64,000 nucleotides of DNA from positions 13,590 through 77,589 of the IMG/VR virus record IMGVR_UViG_3300036828_000771; one strand, written 5' to 3'. Origin of the DNA: a virus. The notes under the pieces are model-generated. The model saw nothing but the letters and a program-made list of their open reading frames with translations, had not been told where the DNA came from and made no database searches. The position numbers were made by a program, and so were the translations under genes. Of this stretch, positions 1,628 to 63,960 are shown in pieces (the stretch's first letter is position 1; each line of letters starts with the position of its first letter).

Positions 1628-3655
1628 ATGGCGAACGACCTCTCCGAAGACATCGGCAATCTGCCTCTGGTCCTCGGACCGGCCGGACTGATGCCGCAAT
1701 CGCCGGCCGATCTGCGCGCCCAACTGATCGCGCTCGTCAGCAAGACCAACCCCGACTACACCGCGAACCTGCCGGGCTCGCTGGTCGAGGACATCGCCTC
1801 GACCGATGTCGCCGCGCTGATCCTGATCGACCGCATGCGAGTCGAGATGCTGAACTCGCTGACGCCGAGGGGGTGCAACGCCTTCGTGCTGAACCAGCTT
1901 GGCCAGATTTACGGCGTGCAGGTCGGCCAGTCGACGAACACCTCGGTCTATGTCCGCTTCACTGGCCTGCCGGGCTTCGTCGTCGGCAAGGGCTTCACCG
2001 TCACCGATGGCAACTTCCAGTACGCCCTGAGCGATGGCGGCGTGTGCGGCTCTGACGGCAACACCCCGCCGCTGTTCGCGCTCGCCACCCAGCCCGGCAT
2101 CTGGGCGGTGCCCGCCGGCACTGTCACAGGAATCATCTCCTCGGTGCCGAGCGGCTTCACGCTCAGCGTCGTCAACGATGAGCCGGGCTTCCCCGGCACC
2201 GATGTCGAGACGATCACGAGCTATCGCTCGCGCGTGCTGATGGCTGGACTCGCGGCCAGCCAAGGCATGGGCCGCTACCTGCGCACGCTGCTGGGCAACG
2301 TCCCCGGCGTCCAGCCGCGACTGATTGGCATCCAGCAGCAGCCGAACGGGCAGTGGTCGATCATCGTGGGCGGCGGCGATCCCTATCAGGTCGCCTACGC
2401 GATCTACACCGCGCTGTTCGACATCAACAATCTGGTGGGCTCGACGCTGGGTGTCGTGACGATCAGCCAAGCCAATCCGGGGCTGGTCACACTCAACCTC
2501 AACCACCTCTACATGCCCGGCCAGCCAGTCACCATCGCCGGGGTGACGCCGCCGACCTACAACGGCAGCTTCGCCGTCATCGACACGCCGACGCAGCAGA
2601 GCTTCCACATCGGCACGCCCTACTCGAACAATGCGATCCAGAGCTTGGTGTGGGCAGCCACTGCGGCACCGGGTGCCAACGGCGCGCTCTCCCAGACGGC
2701 GGGCGGCGCGCTGGCCGCACGAACGCTGTATGTGCGCAGCACATGGGTCACGCCTTTGGGCGAGACGACTGCCGCACCCGAGACTTCGCTCGCTGTGCTG
2801 GCGAACAATCTCCTGAACGTCGCGGCACCAGCGTCGCCACCTTCCGGCGTCACGGGCTGGAACGTCTATGTCTCTAACGCCACCGGCACAGAGACCAAGC
2901 AGAACACCACTCCCATCGCGCTAGGCGCAACTTGGGTTCAGCCCGTTAGCGGCATCATCACCACGGGTTCGGCTTTGCCGTCGAGCAGCACAGCAGGCGG
3001 CGTGGCGACGGCGGTGACGCTCGCACCGCACGGTGTGACGGTCGGCTCGACGTTTGCGATCTCGGGGGCCACGCCGGCCGGCTGGAACAGCACCGCTCTG
3101 GTGGCGACCGCTGGCACAGCCGGGACGACGCTGAACTGGGCGCTGGCGGCCAGCCCGGGAGCGGCGACGGTGAACGGCCAGCTTGTCGCTGGCGTGGCTC
3201 TGTTCAACACCAGCGGCCTCGCGGCCTACGTCAGCGGCGGCGTGGTCACGCCGAACCTGCGCAACAACATCGTGACGCTGTCCGACTACCCGGACACCTA
3301 CCAGATTCCGTTCATCATCCCGCCGCAGCAGACCATCGCCTCGACCGTGCAGTGGCACACGACGAGCCCGAACTTCGTGTCGGCGGCGGCGGTGGCGCAG
3401 TTGGCGATCCCGGCGCTGGTCGACTACATCAACAGCATCCCGGTCGGCCAGCCGATCAATCTCTACGCGATGCAGGACGTGTTCACCGATGCGGTCGAGC
3501 CCGTCCTGCCGGCGTCGCTGATCTCGACCATCATCATCTCGATCTCGATCAACGGCGTCGGCACGCCCGTGACGCCGGGCACGGGCCTGTTCAATGGCGA
3601 CCCGCAGTCGTACTTCTTCGCCACGTCGTCGAACTTCAACATCGTTCAGATATAA
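1628..3655 (+). CDS. Baseplate J-like protein with inserted beta-rich accessory domains
   Basis: LNQLGQIYG, VRFTG..GFVV.KGFTV, GTDVETITSYRSRV and GGGDPYQVAYAIY motifs; ~270-aa insertion. Confidence 0.85.
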   Translation: MANDLSEDIGNLPLVLGPAGLMPQSPADLRAQLIALVSKTNPDYTANLPGSLVEDIASTDVAALILIDRMRVEMLNSLTPRGCNAFVLNQLGQIYGVQVGQSTNTSVYVRFTGLPGFVVGKGFTVTDGNFQYALSDGGVCGSDGNTPPLFALATQPGIWAVPAGTVTGIISSVPSGFTLSVVNDEPGFPGTDVETITSYRSRVLMAGLAASQGMGRYLRTLLGNVPGVQPRLIGIQQQPNGQWSIIVGGGDPYQVAYAIYTALFDINNLVGSTLGVVTISQANPGLVTLNLNHLYMPGQPVTIAGVTPPTYNGSFAVIDTPTQQSFHIGTPYSNNAIQSLVWAATAAPGANGALSQTAGGALAARTLYVRSTWVTPLGETTAAPETSLAVLANNLLNVAAPASPPSGVTGWNVYVSNATGTETKQNTTPIALGATWVQPVSGIITTGSALPSSSTAGGVATAVTLAPHGVTVGSTFAISGATPAGWNSTALVATAGTAGTTLNWALAASPGAATVNGQLVAGVALFNTSGLAAYVSGGVVTPNLRNNIVTLSDYPDTYQIPFIIPPQQTIASTVQWHTTSPNFVSAAAVAQLAIPALVDYINSIPVGQPINLYAMQDVFTDAVEPVLPASLISTIIISISINGVGTPVTPGTGLFNGDPQSYFFATSSNFNIVQI

Positions 3656-52320: not shown

Positions 52321-53937
52321 ATGGCGACACCGACGACCGTCATCATCAACTCGTCGGCGATGGGCTCGGCTTTGTCGTCGATGCTGACGACGAACGACGA
52401 CATCCAGCCGGGGAGTTCGCCGGGCTACGAGCTTTGCAAGACGATCTACCAGTACCATCCGCTGGGCGCGAAGCTGGTCGAGCGGCCCATCGAGATCGCG
52501 CAGAGCCAAGAGCGCGAGATCAGCGTGCCGGACTCGCCCGAGTCGCGCGTGGTCGAGGCGTTCAAGAACGAGCAGACGCGGCTCGGTGTGAACAACCACA
52601 TCAGGAACGTGATGCGGCTGGCGCGGGTCTACGGCGTGGCATCGCTCGGCGTGGTCGAGGACGGCAAGAAGTTCGCCGATCCGCTCGACTTTGAGAATCT
52701 GTTCAAGTCGCAGATCACCTTCAACGTCTACGATCCGCTGAACACGGCGGGCTCGCTGGTGCTGCATCAGGACCCGCTGGCCATCGACTTCCAGCATGTC
52801 ATGCAGATCGCGGTGAACGGCCAGCCGTTCCATCGCAGCCGGTCCATCGTGGTGATGAACGAGGAGCCGATCTACATCAGCTACACCAGTTCGGCGTTCG
52901 GCTTCGTCGGCCGCAGCGTCTACCAGCGCTCGCTGTTCCCGCTGAAGTCGTTCCTGCAATGCGTGATCACCGACGATCTGGTGGCGCGCAAGGTCGGCGT
53001 GCTGGTGGCGAAGATCAAGCAGCCCGGCTCGATCATCAACAACGCGATGATCAAGCTGTTCGGCCAGAAGCGCGCGGTGGTGAAGGAGGCGGAGACCGGC
53101 GGCGTGATCTCGATCTCGCCCGAGGAAGACATCGCCTCGCTGAACTTCCAGAACGCGGACGGCCCTTACGAGGTGGCGCGCAAGAACATCATGGAGAACA
53201 TCGCCAGTGCGGCGGGCATGCCGGCGAAGCTCTTGACCGAGGAGACATTCGCCGAGGGCTTCGGTGAAGGCACCGAGGACGCCAAGGCCATCGCGCGCTA
53301 CATCGACAGCGTGCGGACCTCGATGCAGCCGCTGTACGACTTCTTCGACCGGATCGTGATGTACCGGGCGTGGAATCCGAACTTCTACAAGATCATCCAG
53401 AGCCAGTACCCGGAGTACAAAACCATCCCGTATCAGCAGGCGTTCTATCGGTGGAAGAACAGCTTCTCGTGCAAGTGGCCGTCGCTGCTGACCGAGCCCG
53501 ATTCGGAACTGGTGAAGGTCGACGAGGTGCGGCTGCGCGCGGTGATGGCGTGGGTGCAGTTGATGATGCCGATAGCCGATCCCGACAACAAGGCGCGGGT
53601 CATCGAATGGGCGGTCGACAACTTCAACGCGCTCAAGTTCCTGTTCGATACGCCGCTGGTGATGGACTACGAGGAGCTTGCGAACTACGAGCCACCGCAG
53701 CCGGCGATGGGCATGCAGCCGCCCGGGCAGAAGCCCGGGCAGCCGGGCCAGCAACCGGGGCAGGGCGGGCAGAAGCAGAACATGATGGGAGGCATGGGCG
53801 GCGGCAACTTTGCGACGCTGCCCAAGAGCCACGCCAACGATGAGGCTGTGGCGGAGTTCACCAAGGCGGTCTCGCGCATGCTGGAGTCGAAGGGCCAGCG
53901 TCGCCTGAAACTGATCGAGAGCAAGCGCGAGAAGTAG
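52321..53937 (+). CDS. Portal protein (DUF1073-type)
   Basis: HPLGAKL, ARVYG, FHRSR, GRSVYQR, IASAAGMPAKLL and GTED motifs; position after terL. Confidence 0.88.
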   Translation: MATPTTVIINSSAMGSALSSMLTTNDDIQPGSSPGYELCKTIYQYHPLGAKLVERPIEIAQSQEREISVPDSPESRVVEAFKNEQTRLGVNNHIRNVMRLARVYGVASLGVVEDGKKFADPLDFENLFKSQITFNVYDPLNTAGSLVLHQDPLAIDFQHVMQIAVNGQPFHRSRSIVVMNEEPIYISYTSSAFGFVGRSVYQRSLFPLKSFLQCVITDDLVARKVGVLVAKIKQPGSIINNAMIKLFGQKRAVVKEAETGGVISISPEEDIASLNFQNADGPYEVARKNIMENIASAAGMPAKLLTEETFAEGFGEGTEDAKAIARYIDSVRTSMQPLYDFFDRIVMYRAWNPNFYKIIQSQYPEYKTIPYQQAFYRWKNSFSCKWPSLLTEPDSELVKVDEVRLRAVMAWVQLMMPIADPDNKARVIEWAVDNFNALKFLFDTPLVMDYEELANYEPPQPAMGMQPPGQKPGQPGQQPGQGGQKQNMMGGMGGGNFATLPKSHANDEAVAEFTKAVSRMLESKGQRRLKLIESKREK

Positions 53938-55493: not shown

Positions 55494-55805
55494 ATGCCGC
55501 TGACCGACAAGGGCGAGAAGATCATGTCCTCAATGAAGGGCACCTACCCGAGCGACAAGAAGGCGAAGGAGGTTTTCTATGCCTCGAAGAACGCCGGCAA
55601 GATCAGCGGTGTCGACGAGGGCGACATGGGCGTCGATGCGGGCGAGGTGCAGCACGCCTTCGACGAGACCGTGGACAAGACGCACAAGCTGGCGGCGCGG
55701 GTGAGCGCGATTGAAGCGCATGATGATCGGTCGGCCGAGGAGCACGCGAAGGCGGCGGAGTTCCACGAGGAAGAAGCCGAGCGGGGCGATGACTGCGCCA
55801 CCTGA
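55494..55805 (+). CDS. Small head-region protein carrying the heptad tag
   Basis: MPLTDKGEKIM...VFYASKNAGKI; RBS GGAGG. Confidence 0.7.
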   Translation: MPLTDKGEKIMSSMKGTYPSDKKAKEVFYASKNAGKISGVDEGDMGVDAGEVQHAFDETVDKTHKLAARVSAIEAHDDRSAEEHAKAAEFHEEEAERGDDCAT

Positions 55806-58800
55806 TCTTGAGGTTGCGGCCGGTCTGTTCGAGGTGTTCGACCGTCGTCTGGATGGACTGCTCGCGCGCCTCGACTTCGATCCGAGCGAGCCACGCGACG
55901 AGTCAGGGAAATGGACGGACGGCGGTGGCGGTGCTGCTGCCCTAAAAACCGGCATGAAGCCTGCCGAGCCCGAGGCGTTCGTCAAAGCGCGCGACAGATC
56001 GACACGCCAGCAGTTCCTGTCGGCTCACCCGGCGTCTGAACTTGCCGACCACACGCTGTTCACGAACGAAGAAGGAACGGTCGGAATATCGGTCGACCCC
56101 AAGGGCGACATCCAGAACGTGTTCAACAATGGCGGCCCTAAAGGTGGGGCATCAAAGGCTATGGTGGCGGCGATTGCGGCAGGCGGTCGCACGCTCGATT
56201 GCTACGACGGCTTCCTGCCAGCCTATTACAGCCAGTTCGGCTTTGCCGAAGACCAGCGCATGAAGTTCAACCGGGACTTCGCGCCGCCGGGCTGGGACTT
56301 CGCGAAGGCCGGCACCCCTGACATTGTATTCATGTCATGGCGTGGCTATATGGGGGATGGAGGTGCGCAAGGTGCCCTAAATAGTGCCGCATCGCACAGG
56401 AAGCCGCCGCCTCCAGAAAGGAGCGAGGTCTATGGCGACGATTGGGATGCAGCCAAAGAGCGCAGCCGAACAGCCGCAGCCGCAGCGGACTCCGGAAGAA
56501 CTCGCTCTGATAGCGTGGCTGGAATCGGGCGGGCGGAAGCTGACGGAGCAGGAGATCAACGTGGCTCTGGAGCAGGCGCGGGCGCTGGGCGAAATCTAGG
56601 GCTTCGCGCCGACGACGATCCGACCGACAGCGACCTGACGGTTGCTGCGGATGCCATCAGTGGGATGATGGCCCGGCTGGACGCATGGGACGAGAGCAGC
56701 CACCCGCGCGGCCAGCCGGACAATAAGGGCCAGTTCGTCACCAAGGGCGGTGAGACGGCTGGCGGGCTGACCATCCAGAAGACCGGGCAAGGCATGTACG
56801 ACGCGCGGGTCAACGGCGACTACGCCGGGCATGCGCACGTCGCCGAGGGCCATCCGTTCCTGTCGTCGATGCACGTCCATGAGGATCATGCCGGCAAGGG
56901 CATCGGCGCGGCGCTGCACGATCACGTCGAGAAGGAGCTTGGTCGGCCGCTGGTGCCGAATCCGCTGCACATGACCGACGAGCACAAGGAGATGTGGCAG
57001 AAGCGGCTGGCCGAGATGCCGCCCACGGATGCGGCGGCGCGCCTGACCGAGGCACGCAAGATCGGCAGCGACAAGTTCGGGCGCAAGCAGACCGACATCG
57101 ACAAGCTGCACAACAACCTGCGCGCCGTGGTCGGCGGCATGCAGCATCCCGGCGAAGGTTATAGCGCCCAGAGCTACATCGATGCGCTGGGCCGCATCCA
57201 CACCAGCAATGTGCAAGACGCGGCGCGCGCGCTGTACGAGAAGAAGTCGGTGGTGCTGAGCCAGCCTCGGCAGGTGTCGACGCTGATTGAGCACCTTGGC
57301 AAGGTGGCGGCCGAGTTCATCCGGCTGGGCGGCAAGGCCCCGACATTCGATCTGTGCAAGGTGAGCGTCGAGGGCACCAACCTGTTCTGCGCCGAGTCGA
57401 AGGGCATCCCGCGCGTGCAGATGCCGCAACTGGACAAGGAAGCGACCAAGCGGTTCCGCAAGTACCTCGAAGCCAAGGGCTTCAAGATCACGCGCGAGAA
57501 GGAGAAGGCGAGCTACCTGCGCGCGACGCAGGACGAACTGAACGGCGCGAAGGTGGCGGCGAACGCAGCGTCCTACGACAAGGGCAAGGAGCCGCGCCGC
57601 ATCATCGTGAGCCGCGACAACTACATCCTCGACGGCCATCACAAGTGGGCCGCGATGCTGGGCATCGACTCGCGTGACGGCAAGTTCGGCGACAAGGACA
57701 TGAAGGTCTCGCGGGTCGACGCATCGATCACGGAGTTGCTGGCGGAGACGCAGGCGTTCGGGGCGACCACCGGGGCGAGCGTCGAATCGGGAACACCCGG
57801 CGGCGCTCAGCCAGCAGCGCGTACCGATGAAGGGCTGACGTTCGACATCCCCGACTTGCGCGGGCGGGTTCGCCCGCTCCAGTTCATGCGCACCGACGCC
57901 TACAATCCGAACGAGGCGCGCATCCCCAAGGGCGAGCCCGGTGGCGGGCAGTGGACATCAGGCGGCGGCGGGCTGGGCTTCACCAAGAACGAGAGCAAGA
58001 GCGGCCCGTCGTACACCATCTGGAACCATGATGAGGGCAATCTGTCGGTCCAGACCGCCACGGGAAAATGGCGTTGGAGCGGGAAAGAGGGCGGCGACAT
58101 CGAGACGACGTATGGCGACGACGAGGAGTCGCTGAACAAGTTCATCAACGCGCACAAGGACGCGCTGAAGGTCAAGCCGCACGACATCAATATGGAAGTC
58201 GCCGATGTCGGCGGCGACGAATGGAACAAGGCGACCGGCAAGCGGATGGAGTTCGAGTACGTGAAGGCGGCGCATCACCTCGACAAGCTGGTGCGCGACA
58301 AGGTCGCGTCGGGCGAGGTCGACCCCGCGCCCGCACCCGAGAAGGACGAGGACGAGGAGCCGCCTGAGAACGAGTACGGCTATTCGTACCCGCCCGATGA
58401 CTGGGACATGCTGTCGGGCGAGCATCAGTCGGACGCAGAGAAGCAGTGGATCGAGAACAACAAGAGCGACTACGTCGAGAGCGAGGAGCAGAACTGGCAC
58501 GAGAACGGCGACGCCAAGGCGCAGGCCGCGAGCCAGTTGGCCGACGACATCACCAACGGCAACCCGGGCGGTGAGTTCTTCGAGGACGCGACCGAGGAAT
58601 GGGTCAAGGAGTGGAACGAGGAGCACCCAGACGATCCGGTGCGCTACACGCCGCACGACCTGTTCATGTCGACGGTCGTCGAGGACGGCAGCAAGTACAA
58701 GGACTGGGGCGCGGGCAGCAGCAACGCCGGCCAGCCGGACATCTCGTTCACCGACGATATGCTCGACAAGCCGCTGGGCTACGAGCCGCCGGACCCGGCG

Positions 58801-61800
58801 CAGATGAACCTGCCCGGTGTGCCCGAGCACATCCCGCCGAAGCCCGGCCAGTTTTTCACCGACGATCAGAAGGCATCGCTGACCGCGCATTTGGAGAAGG
58901 CGTTCGACGATGAGGCCGACAAGCAGGAATACAATCTCGAAGCGCCTGACTACATCAGCGAGCAGGCCGAAGAACAGATGGGCGAAGTCTGGGATCAGAT
59001 GGACGACAAGCAGAAGTTCAAGATCGCAAAGGACGTGCTCACCAGCGGCATCTTCGAGGAGCCCGGCCCGGCGCAGCAGGACGAGGAGGTCGACGAGGAT
59101 TCGGACGCGATCATCGCCGAGCCGCCGAAGCACTACGACCCGCTGAACACCGGGCACGACATGACCGACTACCGGCGCACGCAGGCGCTCGCGCGCACGG
59201 TGTCCATCGACCGGGGTGTCGAGCTTCTGATGGAGCGCGGCGTGCTCAAGACGGGCAAGCCGCACACATGGCAGGACACGGCGAAGATACTGAAGGACGG
59301 CGAGCGCTTCACACCACAGCAGATCGCCGATGCAGTGGGCCGGAATGCAAACCCGGAGTTGGCTGAGCAACAGGGCGAGCATGGCTTGGCCATGCAGTTG
59401 CGGCTGACCAAGGAATTGGCGAACACATCTGTGGCGCTGGGTCTTGCGATGACGCCCTACGCTGTGGCGCTTCAGCTAGACGGGCCGGGAAAGACCAAGC
59501 TGTCGCGCGACTTCGCGGCGAAGGTGGTGAACGCGATGAAGCCCAACATCGAAGGCGAAGGCGAGAACACCTACCTGAACGGCGTCGGCTTCGACGAGGA
59601 GAAGCTGAAGGAGTCGCTGGGCAGGCCCGGCGCAAGGGAATACTTCGACGCGGTGAAAGACGACATCGGCGCGAAGCTGAACGCCTACCTCAATGATCGG
59701 CACCATGAACTGGCGGCAAAGGGCGCGCAGTACAATTTAGGGCGCGAGCACACCATCGGCGATACGCTTGCCAAGTTTACCGAGGCGCAGGCTAAGTGGG
59801 ATGCGGAGTCGCTGGGCAAGCTGATCGATCAGGGGACACCCAGCACCTCGGTGTCGCCGGACCTGCAAGAGGCGGCGCGTTACGCCTACACGCTGTACTC
59901 GTCAGGACCCGTCGAGGACATCGCCTACAAGGCCAAGGGCTACCCGAACCCGAAGCCGATGCCGACCGAAGCGAAGCGCGCCTCGGCCATGTACGCCGGG
60001 AAGCTGGCGATGGCGCTGCGCATGAGGCGCGGGGTGGACGACAAGCCGACCGAAGTGACGTTCGATCAGCCGACCCTCGACAAGGAGATGCACGATCCGT
60101 GGGAGCGCGACTACTTCCAGCAGAACAAGGAGAAGCTGGTGCAGGCGGCCTCGCAGTACCTGTACGACCGGCACAATGCGCTGGCCGAAGACACCGGCAA
60201 GGGTGTCGCCGATCTGCGCGCGGCGGTGAAGCGGCGCGACCGTGAGATGTGGGAAGCGTGGAAGGGAAGCTCGACCTCGACGCTGGGCAAGCTGATCCAG
60301 ATCGGCTCGGCGGATGAACTGGGCGGCCGGGTGCGCATGCCCCAGAGAGTCAAGCTCGACTTCGACGAGGACAAGGTCGAGATGCCGAACTTCGGCGAGG
60401 TGCTGGCCGCCAATGCGGTGCCAGCCGCGACGCTCCCCGGCGGCCATGTGGTGAACGTCAAGGCAGCGCTGACCGAGCAACTGAGCAACAACGTCATGGA
60501 CCTGCCGGTCGCGGATCGCATGACGTTGAACGACAAGTTTGTGAAACTCTCGAAAGAGCAGGGCCATCCATACGAGAAGCTGGACTGGTCTTTGACGACG
60601 GCGGAGTTGGTTGGCCACGCCAAGCTCAGCTACAACCCGGAGAAGGGACCGACGACCGGCGGGCTCGTGATCAAGGTGAACGAGGACGACCTGTCGCCGC
60701 CCGCGAAGTTCCTGTGGCAGTCGCGACGGCCTGAGATCAAGACAGCGATGCTGAAGGGCATGCTGTCCGAGGCGAACGCGGTGCATAGGGATCGCGTCAC
60801 CGTGGCGAAGAGAGCGGCGATCCTGAAGGCTGGCGGCTACAAGCCGCTGCCGCTGTCGAGCACGCTGGACGCCGCCAAGAGCGGAGTCGGTTCGGCCACG
60901 TCGCGCATCCGCAACCAGTTGGATGATGTTCTGAGGGGGATACCGGAGATCAAGCCGGACTACGCCCACGATATATCGACGAAGCTCGGCGATCCGTCAT
61001 CGTGGTCGACGGCGGTGAAGATCGGCGACGACGACAAGTTCCATTTCGATGGCGACAAGGTGATCGCCAACTTCTTGGCGAGGAACCCGAACTACAACCC
61101 CGAGACCAATCCGGCCACCGGCCCTGTGCGCGAGGCAATGACGACCTCGCTGAACGCGCTGAAGGAGCGCAAGGCGGAGATCGAGAAGGCACTCCAGACG
61201 GGGATGCAGGTCTACCAGTCCGTGCGCGAGGACAACGCCAAGTCGGCGGCGGAGCAGAAGTACCTCGATGCGAATCAGTACGCATGGGAGCCGAAGGAGG
61301 AACTGATCGCGACGGCCGACAAGACCCTGAAGGACATCGGCGGCTACGCGGGCCTGAAGGCACTGCTGCGGGCGAAGTGGGAGACCACGCAGTGGCTGCT
61401 CGACAAGGCGGGCATCCACACAGTGAAGGTCTACCGGGGCATGGAGATTCCATCGCTCGACAATACCCGCGAGAAGGCGGTGATCGGCAAGAGCGGGCAT
61501 GACTACAAGAGCCTGCCCGAGGCCAACATCATTCGGCCCGGCGCGCACTCGACCTCGCTCGACGCCAAGGTCTCGAACGGCTGGCGCGGCAACAACCGCA
61601 TCGTGCTGCGCATGGAAGTGCCGCGCACGGCAGTGCTCTCGATCCCGGCCTATGGCATCAACGTCCACGGCGAACACGAACTGGTGGTGACGGGCACGGC
61701 GTGGAAGAACTGGGACGCATGGCGCACGACCGCGCCGACGTTCGATCAGATTCCGATAGCGTCGCATGTGCACAAGCCCGAGGGCGTACCAGCGACGCCA

Positions 61801-61815
61801 ACCGAGAGTCAGTGA
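55789..61815 (+). CDS. Large polyvalent protein: GNAT-like, GNAT, ParB-like, acidic region and C-terminal R-S-E ADP-ribosyltransferase
   Basis: LDCYDGFLPAYYSQFGF; VHEDHAGKGIGAAL; ATQ...IIVSRDNYILDGHHKWAA; VYRG...STS...GEHELVV; downstream of MuF. Confidence 0.8.
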   Translation: MTAPPDLEVAAGLFEVFDRRLDGLLARLDFDPSEPRDESGKWTDGGGGAAALKTGMKPAEPEAFVKARDRSTRQQFLSAHPASELADHTLFTNEEGTVGISVDPKGDIQNVFNNGGPKGGASKAMVAAIAAGGRTLDCYDGFLPAYYSQFGFAEDQRMKFNRDFAPPGWDFAKAGTPDIVFMSWRGYMGDGGAQGALNSAASHRKPPPPERSEVYGDDWDAAKERSRTAAAAADSGRTRSDSVAGIGRAEADGAGDQRGSGAGAGAGRNLGLRADDDPTDSDLTVAADAISGMMARLDAWDESSHPRGQPDNKGQFVTKGGETAGGLTIQKTGQGMYDARVNGDYAGHAHVAEGHPFLSSMHVHEDHAGKGIGAALHDHVEKELGRPLVPNPLHMTDEHKEMWQKRLAEMPPTDAAARLTEARKIGSDKFGRKQTDIDKLHNNLRAVVGGMQHPGEGYSAQSYIDALGRIHTSNVQDAARALYEKKSVVLSQPRQVSTLIEHLGKVAAEFIRLGGKAPTFDLCKVSVEGTNLFCAESKGIPRVQMPQLDKEATKRFRKYLEAKGFKITREKEKASYLRATQDELNGAKVAANAASYDKGKEPRRIIVSRDNYILDGHHKWAAMLGIDSRDGKFGDKDMKVSRVDASITELLAETQAFGATTGASVESGTPGGAQPAARTDEGLTFDIPDLRGRVRPLQFMRTDAYNPNEARIPKGEPGGGQWTSGGGGLGFTKNESKSGPSYTIWNHDEGNLSVQTATGKWRWSGKEGGDIETTYGDDEESLNKFINAHKDALKVKPHDINMEVADVGGDEWNKATGKRMEFEYVKAAHHLDKLVRDKVASGEVDPAPAPEKDEDEEPPENEYGYSYPPDDWDMLSGEHQSDAEKQWIENNKSDYVESEEQNWHENGDAKAQAASQLADDITNGNPGGEFFEDATEEWVKEWNEEHPDDPVRYTPHDLFMSTVVEDGSKYKDWGAGSSNAGQPDISFTDDMLDKPLGYEPPDPAQMNLPGVPEHIPPKPGQFFTDDQKASLTAHLEKAFDDEADKQEYNLEAPDYISEQAEEQMGEVWDQMDDKQKFKIAKDVLTSGIFEEPGPAQQDEEVDEDSDAIIAEPPKHYDPLNTGHDMTDYRRTQALARTVSIDRGVELLMERGVLKTGKPHTWQDTAKILKDGERFTPQQIADAVGRNANPELAEQQGEHGLAMQLRLTKELANTSVALGLAMTPYAVALQLDGPGKTKLSRDFAAKVVNAMKPNIEGEGENTYLNGVGFDEEKLKESLGRPGAREYFDAVKDDIGAKLNAYLNDRHHELAAKGAQYNLGREHTIGDTLAKFTEAQAKWDAESLGKLIDQGTPSTSVSPDLQEAARYAYTLYSSGPVEDIAYKAKGYPNPKPMPTEAKRASAMYAGKLAMALRMRRGVDDKPTEVTFDQPTLDKEMHDPWERDYFQQNKEKLVQAASQYLYDRHNALAEDTGKGVADLRAAVKRRDREMWEAWKGSSTSTLGKLIQIGSADELGGRVRMPQRVKLDFDEDKVEMPNFGEVLAANAVPAATLPGGHVVNVKAALTEQLSNNVMDLPVADRMTLNDKFVKLSKEQGHPYEKLDWSLTTAELVGHAKLSYNPEKGPTTGGLVIKVNEDDLSPPAKFLWQSRRPEIKTAMLKGMLSEANAVHRDRVTVAKRAAILKAGGYKPLPLSSTLDAAKSGVGSATSRIRNQLDDVLRGIPEIKPDYAHDISTKLGDPSSWSTAVKIGDDDKFHFDGDKVIANFLARNPNYNPETNPATGPVREAMTTSLNALKERKAEIEKALQTGMQVYQSVREDNAKSAAEQKYLDANQYAWEPKEELIATADKTLKDIGGYAGLKALLRAKWETTQWLLDKAGIHTVKVYRGMEIPSLDNTREKAVIGKSGHDYKSLPEANIIRPGAHSTSLDAKVSNGWRGNNRIVLRMEVPRTAVLSIPAYGINVHGEHELVVTGTAWKNWDAWRTTAPTFDQIPIASHVHKPEGVPATPTESQ
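56432..56599 (+). CDS. Nested out-of-frame small gene inside the polyprotein linker
   Basis: RBS AAAGGAG/GAGG, ATG, GC3-rich codons and an amphipathic helical product. Confidence 0.55.
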   Translation: MATIGMQPKSAAEQPQPQRTPEELALIAWLESGGRKLTEQEINVALEQARALGEI

Positions 61816-61816
61816 C

Positions 61817-62026
61817 ATGGCTGACAACGACATCGACATCGCGCTGGCCGACACCATCGCGGGACGACACTGGCTGCATCCGGCGGTGCGCCATCACGGC
61901 AACCCGCGCATGGAGGCGATCCGCGCGAAGTACCGGGCGCTGCATCAGGCTGGCAAGATGATGGGCAAGATCGGCGACAAGACCGACAAGCTGACGAAGC
62001 GGCTCGACACGCTGGATGACAAATGA
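61817..62026 (+). CDS. Small head-region protein carrying the heptad tag
   Basis: Ends MGKIGDKTDKLTKRLDTLDDK; ATGA overlap with the next gene. Confidence 0.6.
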   Translation: MADNDIDIALADTIAGRHWLHPAVRHHGNPRMEAIRAKYRALHQAGKMMGKIGDKTDKLTKRLDTLDDK

Positions 62027-63960
62027 TTCGCGCAGCCGGCGTCATGATCGTGAGCGCTGGCGGCAAGGTGCTGTTTCTGAAGCGGTCGAAGTCGGGCGAT
62101 CAGGCTGGCAAATGGTGCTTTCCGGGCGGCGGCATCGAAGGCAACGAAACGCCAAAGGAAGCGGCGATCAGAGAACTGGACGAGGAGGCAGGAGTCCGGG
62201 CGGAGCCTGAGCATCTGACGTTCTGGACGCGGCGGGTGAAGGACGACGTGGACTTCACGACGTTCATCGTGCGCAACGTGGTCGAGTTCGAGCCCTACCT
62301 CAACGCCGAGCACACCCAGTACCTGTGGGCCGAGCCGCACCGGGCACCGCGCCCGCTCCATCCCGGCTGCGAGGTCTGCCTCGACAAGCTGGAGAGTGAC
62401 GAGCTTTGGGTGGCGCGGCAGATGCGCGACGGCGAGCTTCACGGCCCGCAGCAGTACGAGAATCTGTGGCTGTTCGCGCTGCGCATCACCGGCACCGGGC
62501 AGGCGTTCCGGCACAAGTGGGACGAGTACGTCATCCGTGATCCGGCGCTCTACCTGAACGAGGACTTTCTCGCGCGCTGCGCCGGCCTGCCGGTAATCCT
62601 CGAACATCCCGAGACCTCGGTGCTGAACACCGAAGAGTTCAAGGACCGCACGGTTGGTACGATCATGCTGCCCTATATCAAGGGCGACGAAGTCTGGGGC
62701 ATCGCGAAGATTTACGATGCCGATGCCGTCAACATCATGCTGAACGAGCAGTTGTCCACGTCACCGGCGGTGGTGTGGAGAGACCCAGACGTGAACTCCG
62801 AGCAGGAACTTGAGAACGGACTGACATCCCTGCGCGAAGGAAAGCCGACTTTGGTGGATCACCTCGCCATCTGCAAGGTCGGCGTCTGGGACAAAGGCGG
62901 GAAACCCGAGGGCATAGACTTAGGAGGCCTAATCATGCCTGATAATGCGAAGCCAAAAGTCGCCGCCGATGATGCAGACAAGGGCGGCATGGGAAGATTG
63001 CTGAAGGGCCTCGAAGCGCTCAACAGCAAGATCGATTCCATCTTCACGCGCGTCGACTCCATCGAGGCCAAGCAGGCCAAGAAGAAGGCGCGCGCCGATG
63101 ATGACGATGAAGGGGGCGGCGAGGACAAGCCGAAGCCGCCGCTGCCGACGCCCGGTGCTGAAGGCGAGCCGTCTCCTGTCGCGGCCGACAAGAAGCGGAA
63201 GGACGACGATCAAGCCGTCCCGCCGAAGGCGAAGGCTGCGCCAGTGCCACCGATGCCACCGCCCAAGCTCGATGACGATGATGACGACGAGGGCGAGGAC
63301 AAGAAGATGCCGCCGGAGTTCCTGAAGAACATCAAGAAGGACGACGACGACGATGAAGGCGACGACAAGGAGGAGAAGGAAGAGGAGGAGAAGGAAGTCG
63401 CCGACGACGCCGGTGGGAAGAAGGTCGCATGGGGCAAGGGCAAGTCGCGCGCCGATGGCACGGTGCGCGTCAAGACCACCGACCTGAACGCCCTGCGGCG
63501 CGAACTCGCCGAGGTCCGGTCTCGCCTGCCCAAGGATCGCGGCGACGAGGACGCGGCTGCCATGGCCGAGGATCAGGCGCGCTGCGATTCGGTGGCGCTG
63601 ATGTTCGGTGCGTCGGCCCCTCGGCCGCTCGCCGGTGAGGCGCGCGCTGCCTACCGGCTGCGCATGTTGGAGCCGTACAAGAAGTACAGCGCCAACTGGA
63701 AGGACGTGCCGCTTGAAGTGGTGGCCGTCGATGAGGCCGCATTGGGCGTGGTCGAGAAGCAGATTTACGACACTGCTCGACTGGCCGCGCGCGATCCCGC
63801 CAGCGTCCCGGTGGGCACGCTGCGGGCTGTTCAAACCCGCACGCCCACGGGTCATCTTGAGACCCGCTTCATGGGCAGCCCGAGCGTCTGGCTGAACCGT
63901 GGCACCCCCAACCGGCGCTACGTCAAAGCCATCAACCTGATGAAGGATAACCGGCCATGA
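62023..63960 (+). CDS. Nudix hydrolase - DUF2213 prohead protease - scaffold fusion
   Basis: Intact Nudix box GGIEGNETPKEAAIRELDEEAGV; PVILEHP, LSTSP, DHLAIC..GVWD; acidic, charged scaffold tail. Confidence 0.85.
   Translation: MIRAAGVMIVSAGGKVLFLKRSKSGDQAGKWCFPGGGIEGNETPKEAAIRELDEEAGVRAEPEHLTFWTRRVKDDVDFTTFIVRNVVEFEPYLNAEHTQYLWAEPHRAPRPLHPGCEVCLDKLESDELWVARQMRDGELHGPQQYENLWLFALRITGTGQAFRHKWDEYVIRDPALYLNEDFLARCAGLPVILEHPETSVLNTEEFKDRTVGTIMLPYIKGDEVWGIAKIYDADAVNIMLNEQLSTSPAVVWRDPDVNSEQELENGLTSLREGKPTLVDHLAICKVGVWDKGGKPEGIDLGGLIMPDNAKPKVAADDADKGGMGRLLKGLEALNSKIDSIFTRVDSIEAKQAKKKARADDDDEGGGEDKPKPPLPTPGAEGEPSPVAADKKRKDDDQAVPPKAKAAPVPPMPPPKLDDDDDDEGEDKKMPPEFLKNIKKDDDDDEGDDKEEKEEEEKEVADDAGGKKVAWGKGKSRADGTVRVKTTDLNALRRELAEVRSRLPKDRGDEDAAAMAEDQARCDSVALMFGASAPRPLAGEARAAYRLRMLEPYKKYSANWKDVPLEVVAVDEAALGVVEKQIYDTARLAARDPASVPVGTLRAVQTRTPTGHLETRFMGSPSVWLNRGTPNRRYVKAINLMKDNRP
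62935..63960 (+). CDS. Probable in-frame nested scaffold protein
   Basis: Strong internal RBS TAGGAGG upstream of in-frame ATG (MPDNAKPK). Confidence 0.6.
   Translation: MPDNAKPKVAADDADKGGMGRLLKGLEALNSKIDSIFTRVDSIEAKQAKKKARADDDDEGGGEDKPKPPLPTPGAEGEPSPVAADKKRKDDDQAVPPKAKAAPVPPMPPPKLDDDDDDEGEDKKMPPEFLKNIKKDDDDDEGDDKEEKEEEEKEVADDAGGKKVAWGKGKSRADGTVRVKTTDLNALRRELAEVRSRLPKDRGDEDAAAMAEDQARCDSVALMFGASAPRPLAGEARAAYRLRMLEPYKKYSANWKDVPLEVVAVDEAALGVVEKQIYDTARLAARDPASVPVGTLRAVQTRTPTGHLETRFMGSPSVWLNRGTPNRRYVKAINLMKDNRP

Follow-up and report, generated by a model that had tools for sequence, protein, structure and literature searches.

A small, conserved +1-frame gene nested within a phage polyvalent protein, and the predicted binding of its product to the adjacent GNAT domain

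Of the Rz/Rz1 spanin genes of phage lambda the smaller is contained, in the +1 frame, within the larger; the two have their own starts, and their products bind each other. The type II GNAT toxin-antitoxin pairs TacT/TacA, AtaT/AtaR and KacT/KacA are adjacent co-expressed genes, in which a small helical protein neutralises the GNAT enzyme at or near the acetyl-CoA or active site. For MuF polymorphic toxins it was found that 89.4% of the genes are followed by a small open reading frame (ORF; <150 amino acids) without known domain, whose suggested role is neutralisation of the effector (Jamet et al., 2017; PMC5576092). Polyvalent proteins are multidomain proteins delivered with the virion, which carry RimI-like GNAT, ParB-like and other effector domains and are encoded near portal and head genes (Iyer, Burroughs, Anand, de Souza and Aravind, 2017; PMC5512222). 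Two GNAT families are described in that survey, and overlapping or frameshifted genes go unmentioned (neither word occurs in it). Here, a stretch of 64,000 nucleotides (the window; 65% GC) of the 77.6 kb virus record IMGVR_UViG_3300036828_000771 was analysed, in which an ORF of 55 codons lies in the +1 frame of a gene for a polyvalent head protein, directly after the first domain of that protein, a divergent GNAT acetyltransferase (GNAT1).

The small ORF is contained entirely in a longer one of the same strand and in another frame, which is an embedded overlap of the Rz/Rz1 type. As in lambda, a small gene is contained in the +1 frame of a larger same-strand phage gene, and binding of the partner is predicted here. 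Unlike Rz/Rz1, the nested gene has no lipoprotein signal and no lysis role, its host ORF encodes a 2,000-residue polyvalent head protein, the overlap occupies a non-conserved linker instead of a functional domain, and the small family appears to pre-exist as free genes. With the MuF toxins (PMC5576092) the locus shares a phage head-associated effector-type domain followed by a small ORF without known domain. However, the MuF toxin is C-terminal and its small ORF is separate and downstream, whereas here the domain is internal and the ORF lies within a continuing frame. The host ORF is assigned to the polyvalent proteins because GNAT1, a Pfam GNAT domain and a ParB-like phrog_2859 region share one ORF of 2034 amino acids that adjoins a portal gene. 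Several effector-type domains thus stand in one chain among virion and packaging genes, and the combination of GNAT and ParB-like domains beside a portal gene is like that of the surveyed proteins (PMC5512222). In contrast to the type II GNAT toxin-antitoxins, the nested protein has no ribbon-helix-helix DNA-binding domain, the gene order is reversed, and the nearest structural neighbours listed for GNAT1 are RimI and NatA-type enzymes. NatA-HYPK (PDB 6c95) is an analogy only: a small helical protein regulates a GNAT catalytic subunit near its active site, but the pair is eukaryotic, of unrelated sequence and without gene overlap. Literature searches returned no description of a nested partner gene of this kind. 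What is new here is that a polyvalent protein harbours a conserved nested gene and that this gene belongs to a family of small proteins without annotation; the type of nested architecture was already known from Rz/Rz1.

The original prediction had placed in 56371-56610 a +1-frame ORF with a ribosome-binding site and an ATG at 56432, and had remarked that the linker of the polyprotein reads there like an off-frame translation. The ORF is present as described, far beyond what chance would give; it ends with the TAG at 56597-56599 (C-terminal end ...LTEQEINVALEQARALGEI). In this interval the main-frame translation reads ...GRAEADGAGDQRGSGAGAGAGRN... and is rich in Gly, Ala, Arg and Ser across the nested ORF. 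The variability of both frames was determined as nucleotide entropy in 19 loci over 29 gap-free core codons, with the GNAT1 domain of the same loci as control. At nested codon positions 1, 2 and 3 the core entropy was 1.19, 0.83 and 1.42, respectively. The third position of the polyprotein codons, which is the second position of the nested codons, was the least variable in the core (Wilcoxon p=2.7e-6). The control showed the normal pattern in the main frame (0.56, 0.53 and 1.36). Because the third position of the main frame is the least variable there, the 'linker' of the polyprotein is a passenger.

Substitutions were counted in the last 19 codons, ungapped and anchored on the nested stop, in nine close pairs of loci, which makes this test independent of the peptide-guided alignment. 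Of 103 differences, 61 were synonymous in the nested frame versus 12 in the main frame, where random expectations are 0.25 and 0.29, respectively. Between L010 and L014 all seven differing sites were silent in the nested frame and none was synonymous in the main frame, so that every one of them alters the polyprotein. The nested frame had a mean amino-acid identity of 0.36, compared with 0.245 for the main frame. Conservation is therefore not confined to the polyprotein frame, and these patterns indicate that purifying selection acts on the nested frame. Main-frame conservation covers W..[NH]E.S..Y..DWD.AK..SR, a segment shared with the variable N-terminal part of the nested protein, and the stretch of main frame shared with the nested core is kept only stop-free. 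The two frames share out the sequence, each being conserved where the other is variable. The impression of an off-frame linker was thus correct, as it is essentially a read-through of the nested gene. These substitution and entropy patterns very strongly support a real protein-coding gene in the +1 frame.

Relatives were fetched in two independent ways. The GNAT1-containing segment as query gave 14 IMG/VR loci, and the peptide alone (alignment A2) gave 7 further IMG/VR loci and 8 metagenome loci; a query with solo GNAT1 contributed one more lineage. Homologues of the peptide were indeed found after similar GNAT domains: in 20 distinct uncultivated phage loci a homologue directly follows GNAT1, always in the +1 frame relative to it. 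Whichever query had fetched these loci, their main frame continues without a stop for hundreds of codons past the nested ORF. As GNAT1 identity among the loci is 46-76%, they do not represent one clone. The hairpin gene (named after the predicted structure described below) was nested in 20 and convergent in 1 of the 22 informative loci on viral contigs, where its linkage to GNAT1 is near-obligatory. About half of the metagenome matches of the peptide query had no GNAT1 on their short contigs.

All 20 overlapped loci have an ATG that leaves 52-66 codons. These nested ATGs arise in at least three main-frame contexts, i.e. TAT-GGx (Tyr-Gly), xAT-GAx (Asn/His-Glu) and GAT-GCA (Asp-Ala), and in L025, L026 and L027 a stop of the nested frame stands immediately 5' of the ATG. 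The Shine-Dalgarno sequence is strong (-6.4 to -7.9 kcal/mol) in the window and in L003, L002, L001, L009 and L026 and weaker in the other loci; L003 shares the AAGGAG of the window, and other loci have weaker GGAG or TGGA motifs. A promoter and terminator scan of 56000-57000 revealed none. The operator half-site or -10-like element GTGCCCTAAAT that had been proposed at 56372 is not supported, as the scan showed no sigma-70-like site in this region. A promoter is not needed for the nested gene, because the late mRNA is polycistronic. Judged from these start regions, the nested ORF is likely translated by independent initiation at its own ATG.

That the upstream domain is a GNAT, as had been assumed, was borne out by its predicted structure, the Pfam GNAT match of the polyprotein (residues 357-410) being located in the second domain and not in GNAT1. 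The Pfam scan of the polyprotein showed that the GNAT models fail to reach GNAT1; residues ~106-210, which comprise this first domain, match phrog_2563. The AF2 model of GNAT1 has a pLDDT of 94.2. With VIA-align the top 50 matches were all GNATs (Z 8.5-10.3), the best at Z 10.3 being PA4794 (root mean square deviation 3.0, 120 residues aligned) and Escherichia coli RimI (2.4, 119 aligned). Foldseek agreed with a GNAT fold at a probability of 0.94-1.0, but with E about 2e-3. The sequence contains an NNGGPKG loop and a DCYDGFLPxYYxQFGF motif. With its beta4-alpha3 pyrophosphate loop and beta5-alpha4 motif the modelled GNAT1 can be assigned with confidence to the genuine GNAT fold. Proteins of Streptomyces phages labelled 'acetyltransferase' are homologues of GNAT1. 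The solo or C-terminal GNAT1 proteins P0289, P0292, P0293, P0309, P0263 and P0271 end right after beta7 (…PDVVFMKLKG, then stop) and are without the helical extension that bears DWD.AK..SR.

The 55-residue product had been expected to be helical. In agreement, the AF2 model (58 sequences) has a disordered N-terminus and helices at residues 21-32 and 39-52, with a core pLDDT of about 90. A fold search with this model gave nothing meaningful (best E 3.3). In the PDB profile search with the nested peptide no match carried weight; the best were sub-significant matches of the OmpR/NarL type, which extend from helix 1 into the beginning of helix 2 (E 0.03-1), only two helices being predicted. The complex of GNAT1 (alignment of 20 rows) and the peptide (57 rows) was predicted together with 3 controls. 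The pair scored 0.78, and the best control 0.49. Of 80 solved complexes 58 attain the mark for this score, and of 110 mismatched pairs 2; these counts are a rough guide here, as own alignments were used. The runs shared at least 96% of the contacts, and the pLDDT of the partner was at least 74. That the model passed by recall of a known structure is unlikely, because no close relative of either chain has been solved.

On GNAT1 (numbered from window position 55960) the predicted interface comprises residues 14-20 in the alpha1-alpha2 region, 54-64 (beta4 with the NNGGPKGG loop), 81-89 (beta5 and where alpha4 begins, beside the invariant Tyr90), 116-120 and 146-154. On the partner it comprises residues 25-54, including the invariant Gln48 and Ala49. 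In GNATs the surface concerned is the acetyl-CoA and acceptor face. Linkage and the controlled model together suggest that the 55-residue product is probably a cognate partner that binds GNAT1. Binding at the catalytic face, if it occurs as modelled, would most simply mask the enzyme.

The hairpin also exists outside polyproteins. A profile of 12 nested peptides retrieved 167 called proteins from a set of 5.8 billion, and in a library clustered at 50% identity the family has 606 cluster representatives at E<=1e-3. The best 150 of these 606 are all proteins of 38-210 amino acids, with no polyprotein among them. The tandem members P0125, P0003, P0126, P0133, P0127 and L028:254-724 contain two or three copies of a hairpin unit of ~38 residues, and in P0168, P0175, P0176 and P0185 one copy is joined to unrelated N-terminal regions. 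From these sequences the unit appears to behave as a mobile C-terminal module. A free hairpin ORF on a short metagenome contig without GNAT1 was found in L028 (tandem), L029/31/33/35, L032 and L036. A serine recombinase (L031:1452-2228; Pfam Resolvase, E=1e-30) is located ~0.9 kb from the free-standing hairpin gene of L031, which suggests that this copy sits on another mobile element.

In L012 the polyprotein terminates with GNAT1 (L012:1-3465, stop at 3465). A convergent ORF of 163 amino acids on the minus strand (L012:3470-3961), the C-terminus of which is the hairpin domain, ends 5 nucleotides from the GNAT1 ORF; its N-terminal ~110 residues had no Pfam match. A two-gene form is represented by P0252 (solo GNAT1, 218 amino acids) and P0077 (53 amino acids), whose Logan contigs are both 12,379 nucleotides long. 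A single DNA with a +1 overlap can encode the final 19 residues and stop codon of P0252 together with the initial 20 residues of P0077, in exactly one of the seven registers tried. Because separate, tandem, convergent and two-gene short-overlap forms exist, the small gene would predate its nesting. It is probably older than and independent of the fusion, the polyprotein linker being the derived reading. This fits the proposal that the small gene was captured whole, with the main frame kept open. In the called protein P0162 (135 amino acids) a GNAT1-tail-like segment (FMSHQGYPEGG...) is in frame with the hairpin domain, which implies an indel or a frameshifted variant in its contig.

Pfam and PHROGs contained no family for the nested peptide. 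Homology to TacA/DUF1778 antitoxins was not found: Pfam TacA1 matched 1 of 58 members at chance level (E=0.0027), the match was not seen again when 10 members were scanned as a follow-up, PF08681 was not found in the phage genome, and there was no TacA among the PDB profile matches of the peptide. By tblastn the peptide had no match in named phages, and the standalone member P0078 had none in plasmids. Two pattern scans of GTDB genomes likewise gave no match; these three negatives say nothing beyond the collections searched. A search of the ESM Atlas returned unnamed clusters only, at 0.77. Streptomyces phage Zemlya gp75 (39 amino acids, after the GNAT1-like gp76) was considered as a family member and was rejected as unrelated to the hairpin family.

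On balance, the probable explanation is a separately translated nested gene whose product docks on, and may mask, GNAT1. Ribosomes would start at the Shine-Dalgarno sequence and ATG of the nested gene on the late mRNA and produce the 55-residue protein. Its N-terminal ~19 residues would be disordered, being dictated by the conserved main-frame motif YGDDWDAAKERSR, and its C-terminal ~35 residues would form the conserved helical hairpin. The hairpin would dock on the catalytic face of GNAT1, at the beta4-alpha3 'P-loop', at the beta5-alpha4 junction by the invariant Tyr, and at the alpha1-alpha2 and beta6-beta7 loops. Nesting would ensure that the partner and its target domain come from the same mRNA. 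The most likely role would be to keep the acetyltransferase masked in the producing cell until the polyprotein has been packaged and injected. With respect to its origin, a cassette of a GNAT and a small gene may have been fused into the polyprotein by loss of the GNAT stop codon. Because of this proposed loss the main frame would continue across the small gene and read it as a passenger linker. Binding and its site are supported by the model; that the nested gene initiates independently, that binding inhibits, and in which order the events took place in evolution are steps that we infer. Of the original idea that a GNAT effector was captured together with its cognate inhibitor, cognate binding is supported by the complex model (0.78 vs 0.49), and the part concerning the promoter and operator is not supported. 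That the peptide is an inhibitor or immunity protein rather than a subunit is a tentative prediction of its role, and a role as activating subunit fits equally well.

Several observations weigh against the nested gene as a separately translated mask of GNAT1. About half of the loci have a weak Shine-Dalgarno sequence, L013 has GNAT1 without a nested ORF, and immunity would be of little evident use to a lytic producer cell. The remaining ones concern the direction and the specificity of binding, and favour a nested gene that is real but encodes something other than a GNAT inhibitor. The product might complete the acetyl-CoA or substrate site as an obligatory subunit, structural or activating, or it might be a general small adaptor or helix-turn-helix-like module (for DNA, capsid or a host protein) that rides in the linker. 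The alpha4 helix of GNAT1 is truncated, being unusually short in the AF2 model, so that the hairpin could complete the enzyme instead of blocking it. Family members that occur in tandem, fused to unrelated N-terminal regions or on contigs without GNAT1 suggest a more general binding module. The control that scored 0.49 was the peptide docked on an unrelated protein in place of GNAT1, i.e. in the model the peptide is to some extent 'sticky'. The helix 1-turn-helix 2 region has the weak OmpR/NarL-type profile matches mentioned above, and one source labels a member 'CsgD family regulator'. However, these matches are below significance, and the AF2 model has two helices only, with neither a recognition helix nor a wing. 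The near-obligatory linkage to GNAT1 on viral contigs also speaks against a product unrelated to GNAT inhibition, as does a complex score that beats the controls with an interface on conserved residues of the catalytic face. An explanation of this kind is considered rather unlikely.

Programmed +1 ribosomal frameshifting would offer another source of the hairpin. Some ribosomes would slip and end at 56597, so that a free GNAT1 ending in a regulatory hairpin would be made beside the full polyprotein. The overlapping frames are on the same strand, P0162 has its GNAT1-tail-like segment in frame with the hairpin domain, and at the conserved 'AK' (56455-56457) a rare Lys codon AAA is followed by G and is potentially slippery (the polyprotein has 10 AAA versus 133 AAG). 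The slip site, however, is not conserved: among 17 loci with the motif 12 have AAA and 5 have AAG, and the AAA at the conserved Lys may reflect the Lys/Arg choice of the nested frame instead of a slip site. Frameshifting would require no start codon, yet the ATG is kept in 20 of 20 loci at differing positions, directly after a stop in three of them, and homologues exist as separate genes with their own starts. This makes frameshifting very improbable. The remaining alternative, that there is no gene but a chance-open ORF (long off-frame ORFs are common in the GC-rich window) or conservation due to an RNA element or the main frame, is effectively refuted by codon-position and synonymous/non-synonymous patterns specific to the +1 frame, by the 606 homologous cluster representatives with small proteins only among the best 150, by the non-overlapping copies and by the confidently modelled core.

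The features of the locus are listed in Table 1. The polyprotein likely starts at an ATG near 55789. Its downstream neighbour in the head-morphogenesis block, which follows it directly, has a Nudix domain as its N-terminus (Pfam E=4e-18). Segments of the polyprotein are flanked by a repeated linker motif, D/E-x-x-(H/E)PR-x-x-x-G-(K/Q)-(F/W)-(T/S)-x-GGG, found in the window at 56600-56760, 55870-55920 and 57890-57960. Such motifs are present in all relatives (examples are EPRDESGKWTDGGGG and SSHPRGQPDNKGQF), and the spacer between GNAT1 and the next of them is wholly occupied by the nested gene. A look-up of sequencing runs showed that soil metagenomes also hold DNA of the window; among the holders listed there was no RNA run.

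Table 1. Positions of the nested gene, its signals, the overlapping parts of the polyprotein and the neighbouring genes in the window.
Feature	Position	Strand	Remarks
Portal gene (Pfam Phage_portal_3)	52321..53937		Upstream neighbour of the polyprotein
Host ORF, polyvalent head-associated polyprotein	55711..61815	+	2034 codons, uninterrupted; TTG at 55711
GNAT1, divergent GNAT-fold (RimI-like) acetyltransferase domain	55960..56358	+	Main frame; phrog_2563, AF2, VIA-align
C-terminal extension of GNAT1	56359..56469	+	Main frame; ends in conserved Y-x-x-D-W-D-x-A-K-x-x-S-R (56431..56469); overlaps variable nested N-terminus
Shine-Dalgarno-like AAGGAG	56418..56423	+	8-nucleotide spacer to nested ATG; anti-Shine-Dalgarno duplex energy -7.9 kcal/mol
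Nested gene	56432..56599	+	+1 frame of the polyprotein; 55 codons and TAG
Main-frame 'passenger' linker (TAAAAADSGRTRSDSVAGIGRAEADGAGDQRGSGAGAGAGRNL)	56470..56599	+	Unconserved as protein; sequence dictated by the nested frame, merely stop-free
Nested protein, conserved core (residues 20-55)	56489..56596	+	Predicted two-helix hairpin; motif TPEE..LI..LE...GRKLTEQEI.LALEQAR.LGE[LI]; alignments A1/A5
Nudix-fused gene	62023..63960		Downstream neighbour of the polyprotein; 645-amino-acid ORF

Gene callers forbid genes that are fully nested on the same strand, and neither Pfam nor PHROGs has a model of the hairpin, which leaves the family invisible where it is most constrained. The dual-coding case is replicated in 20 lineages, with the short frame selected and the long frame as passenger, and can serve as a benchmark for finding genes that overlap. 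It also gives a handle on the function of an uncharacterised and widespread family of phage GNATs. Furthermore, it suggests that injected polyvalent effectors can hold their own regulators or partners in their linkers, which would change the practice of expression, assay and annotation of these proteins. A more speculative and doubtful extension is that polyvalent effectors carry nested, separately translated 'keeper' genes in their linkers, each of which encodes in cis a partner that binds and silences or completes the adjacent enzyme until delivery, and that the hairpin is the first of a widespread, unannotated class (606 clusters). If this were true, a linker would have been born when a gene that already existed was read through in a foreign frame; this would be overprinting in the reverse direction.

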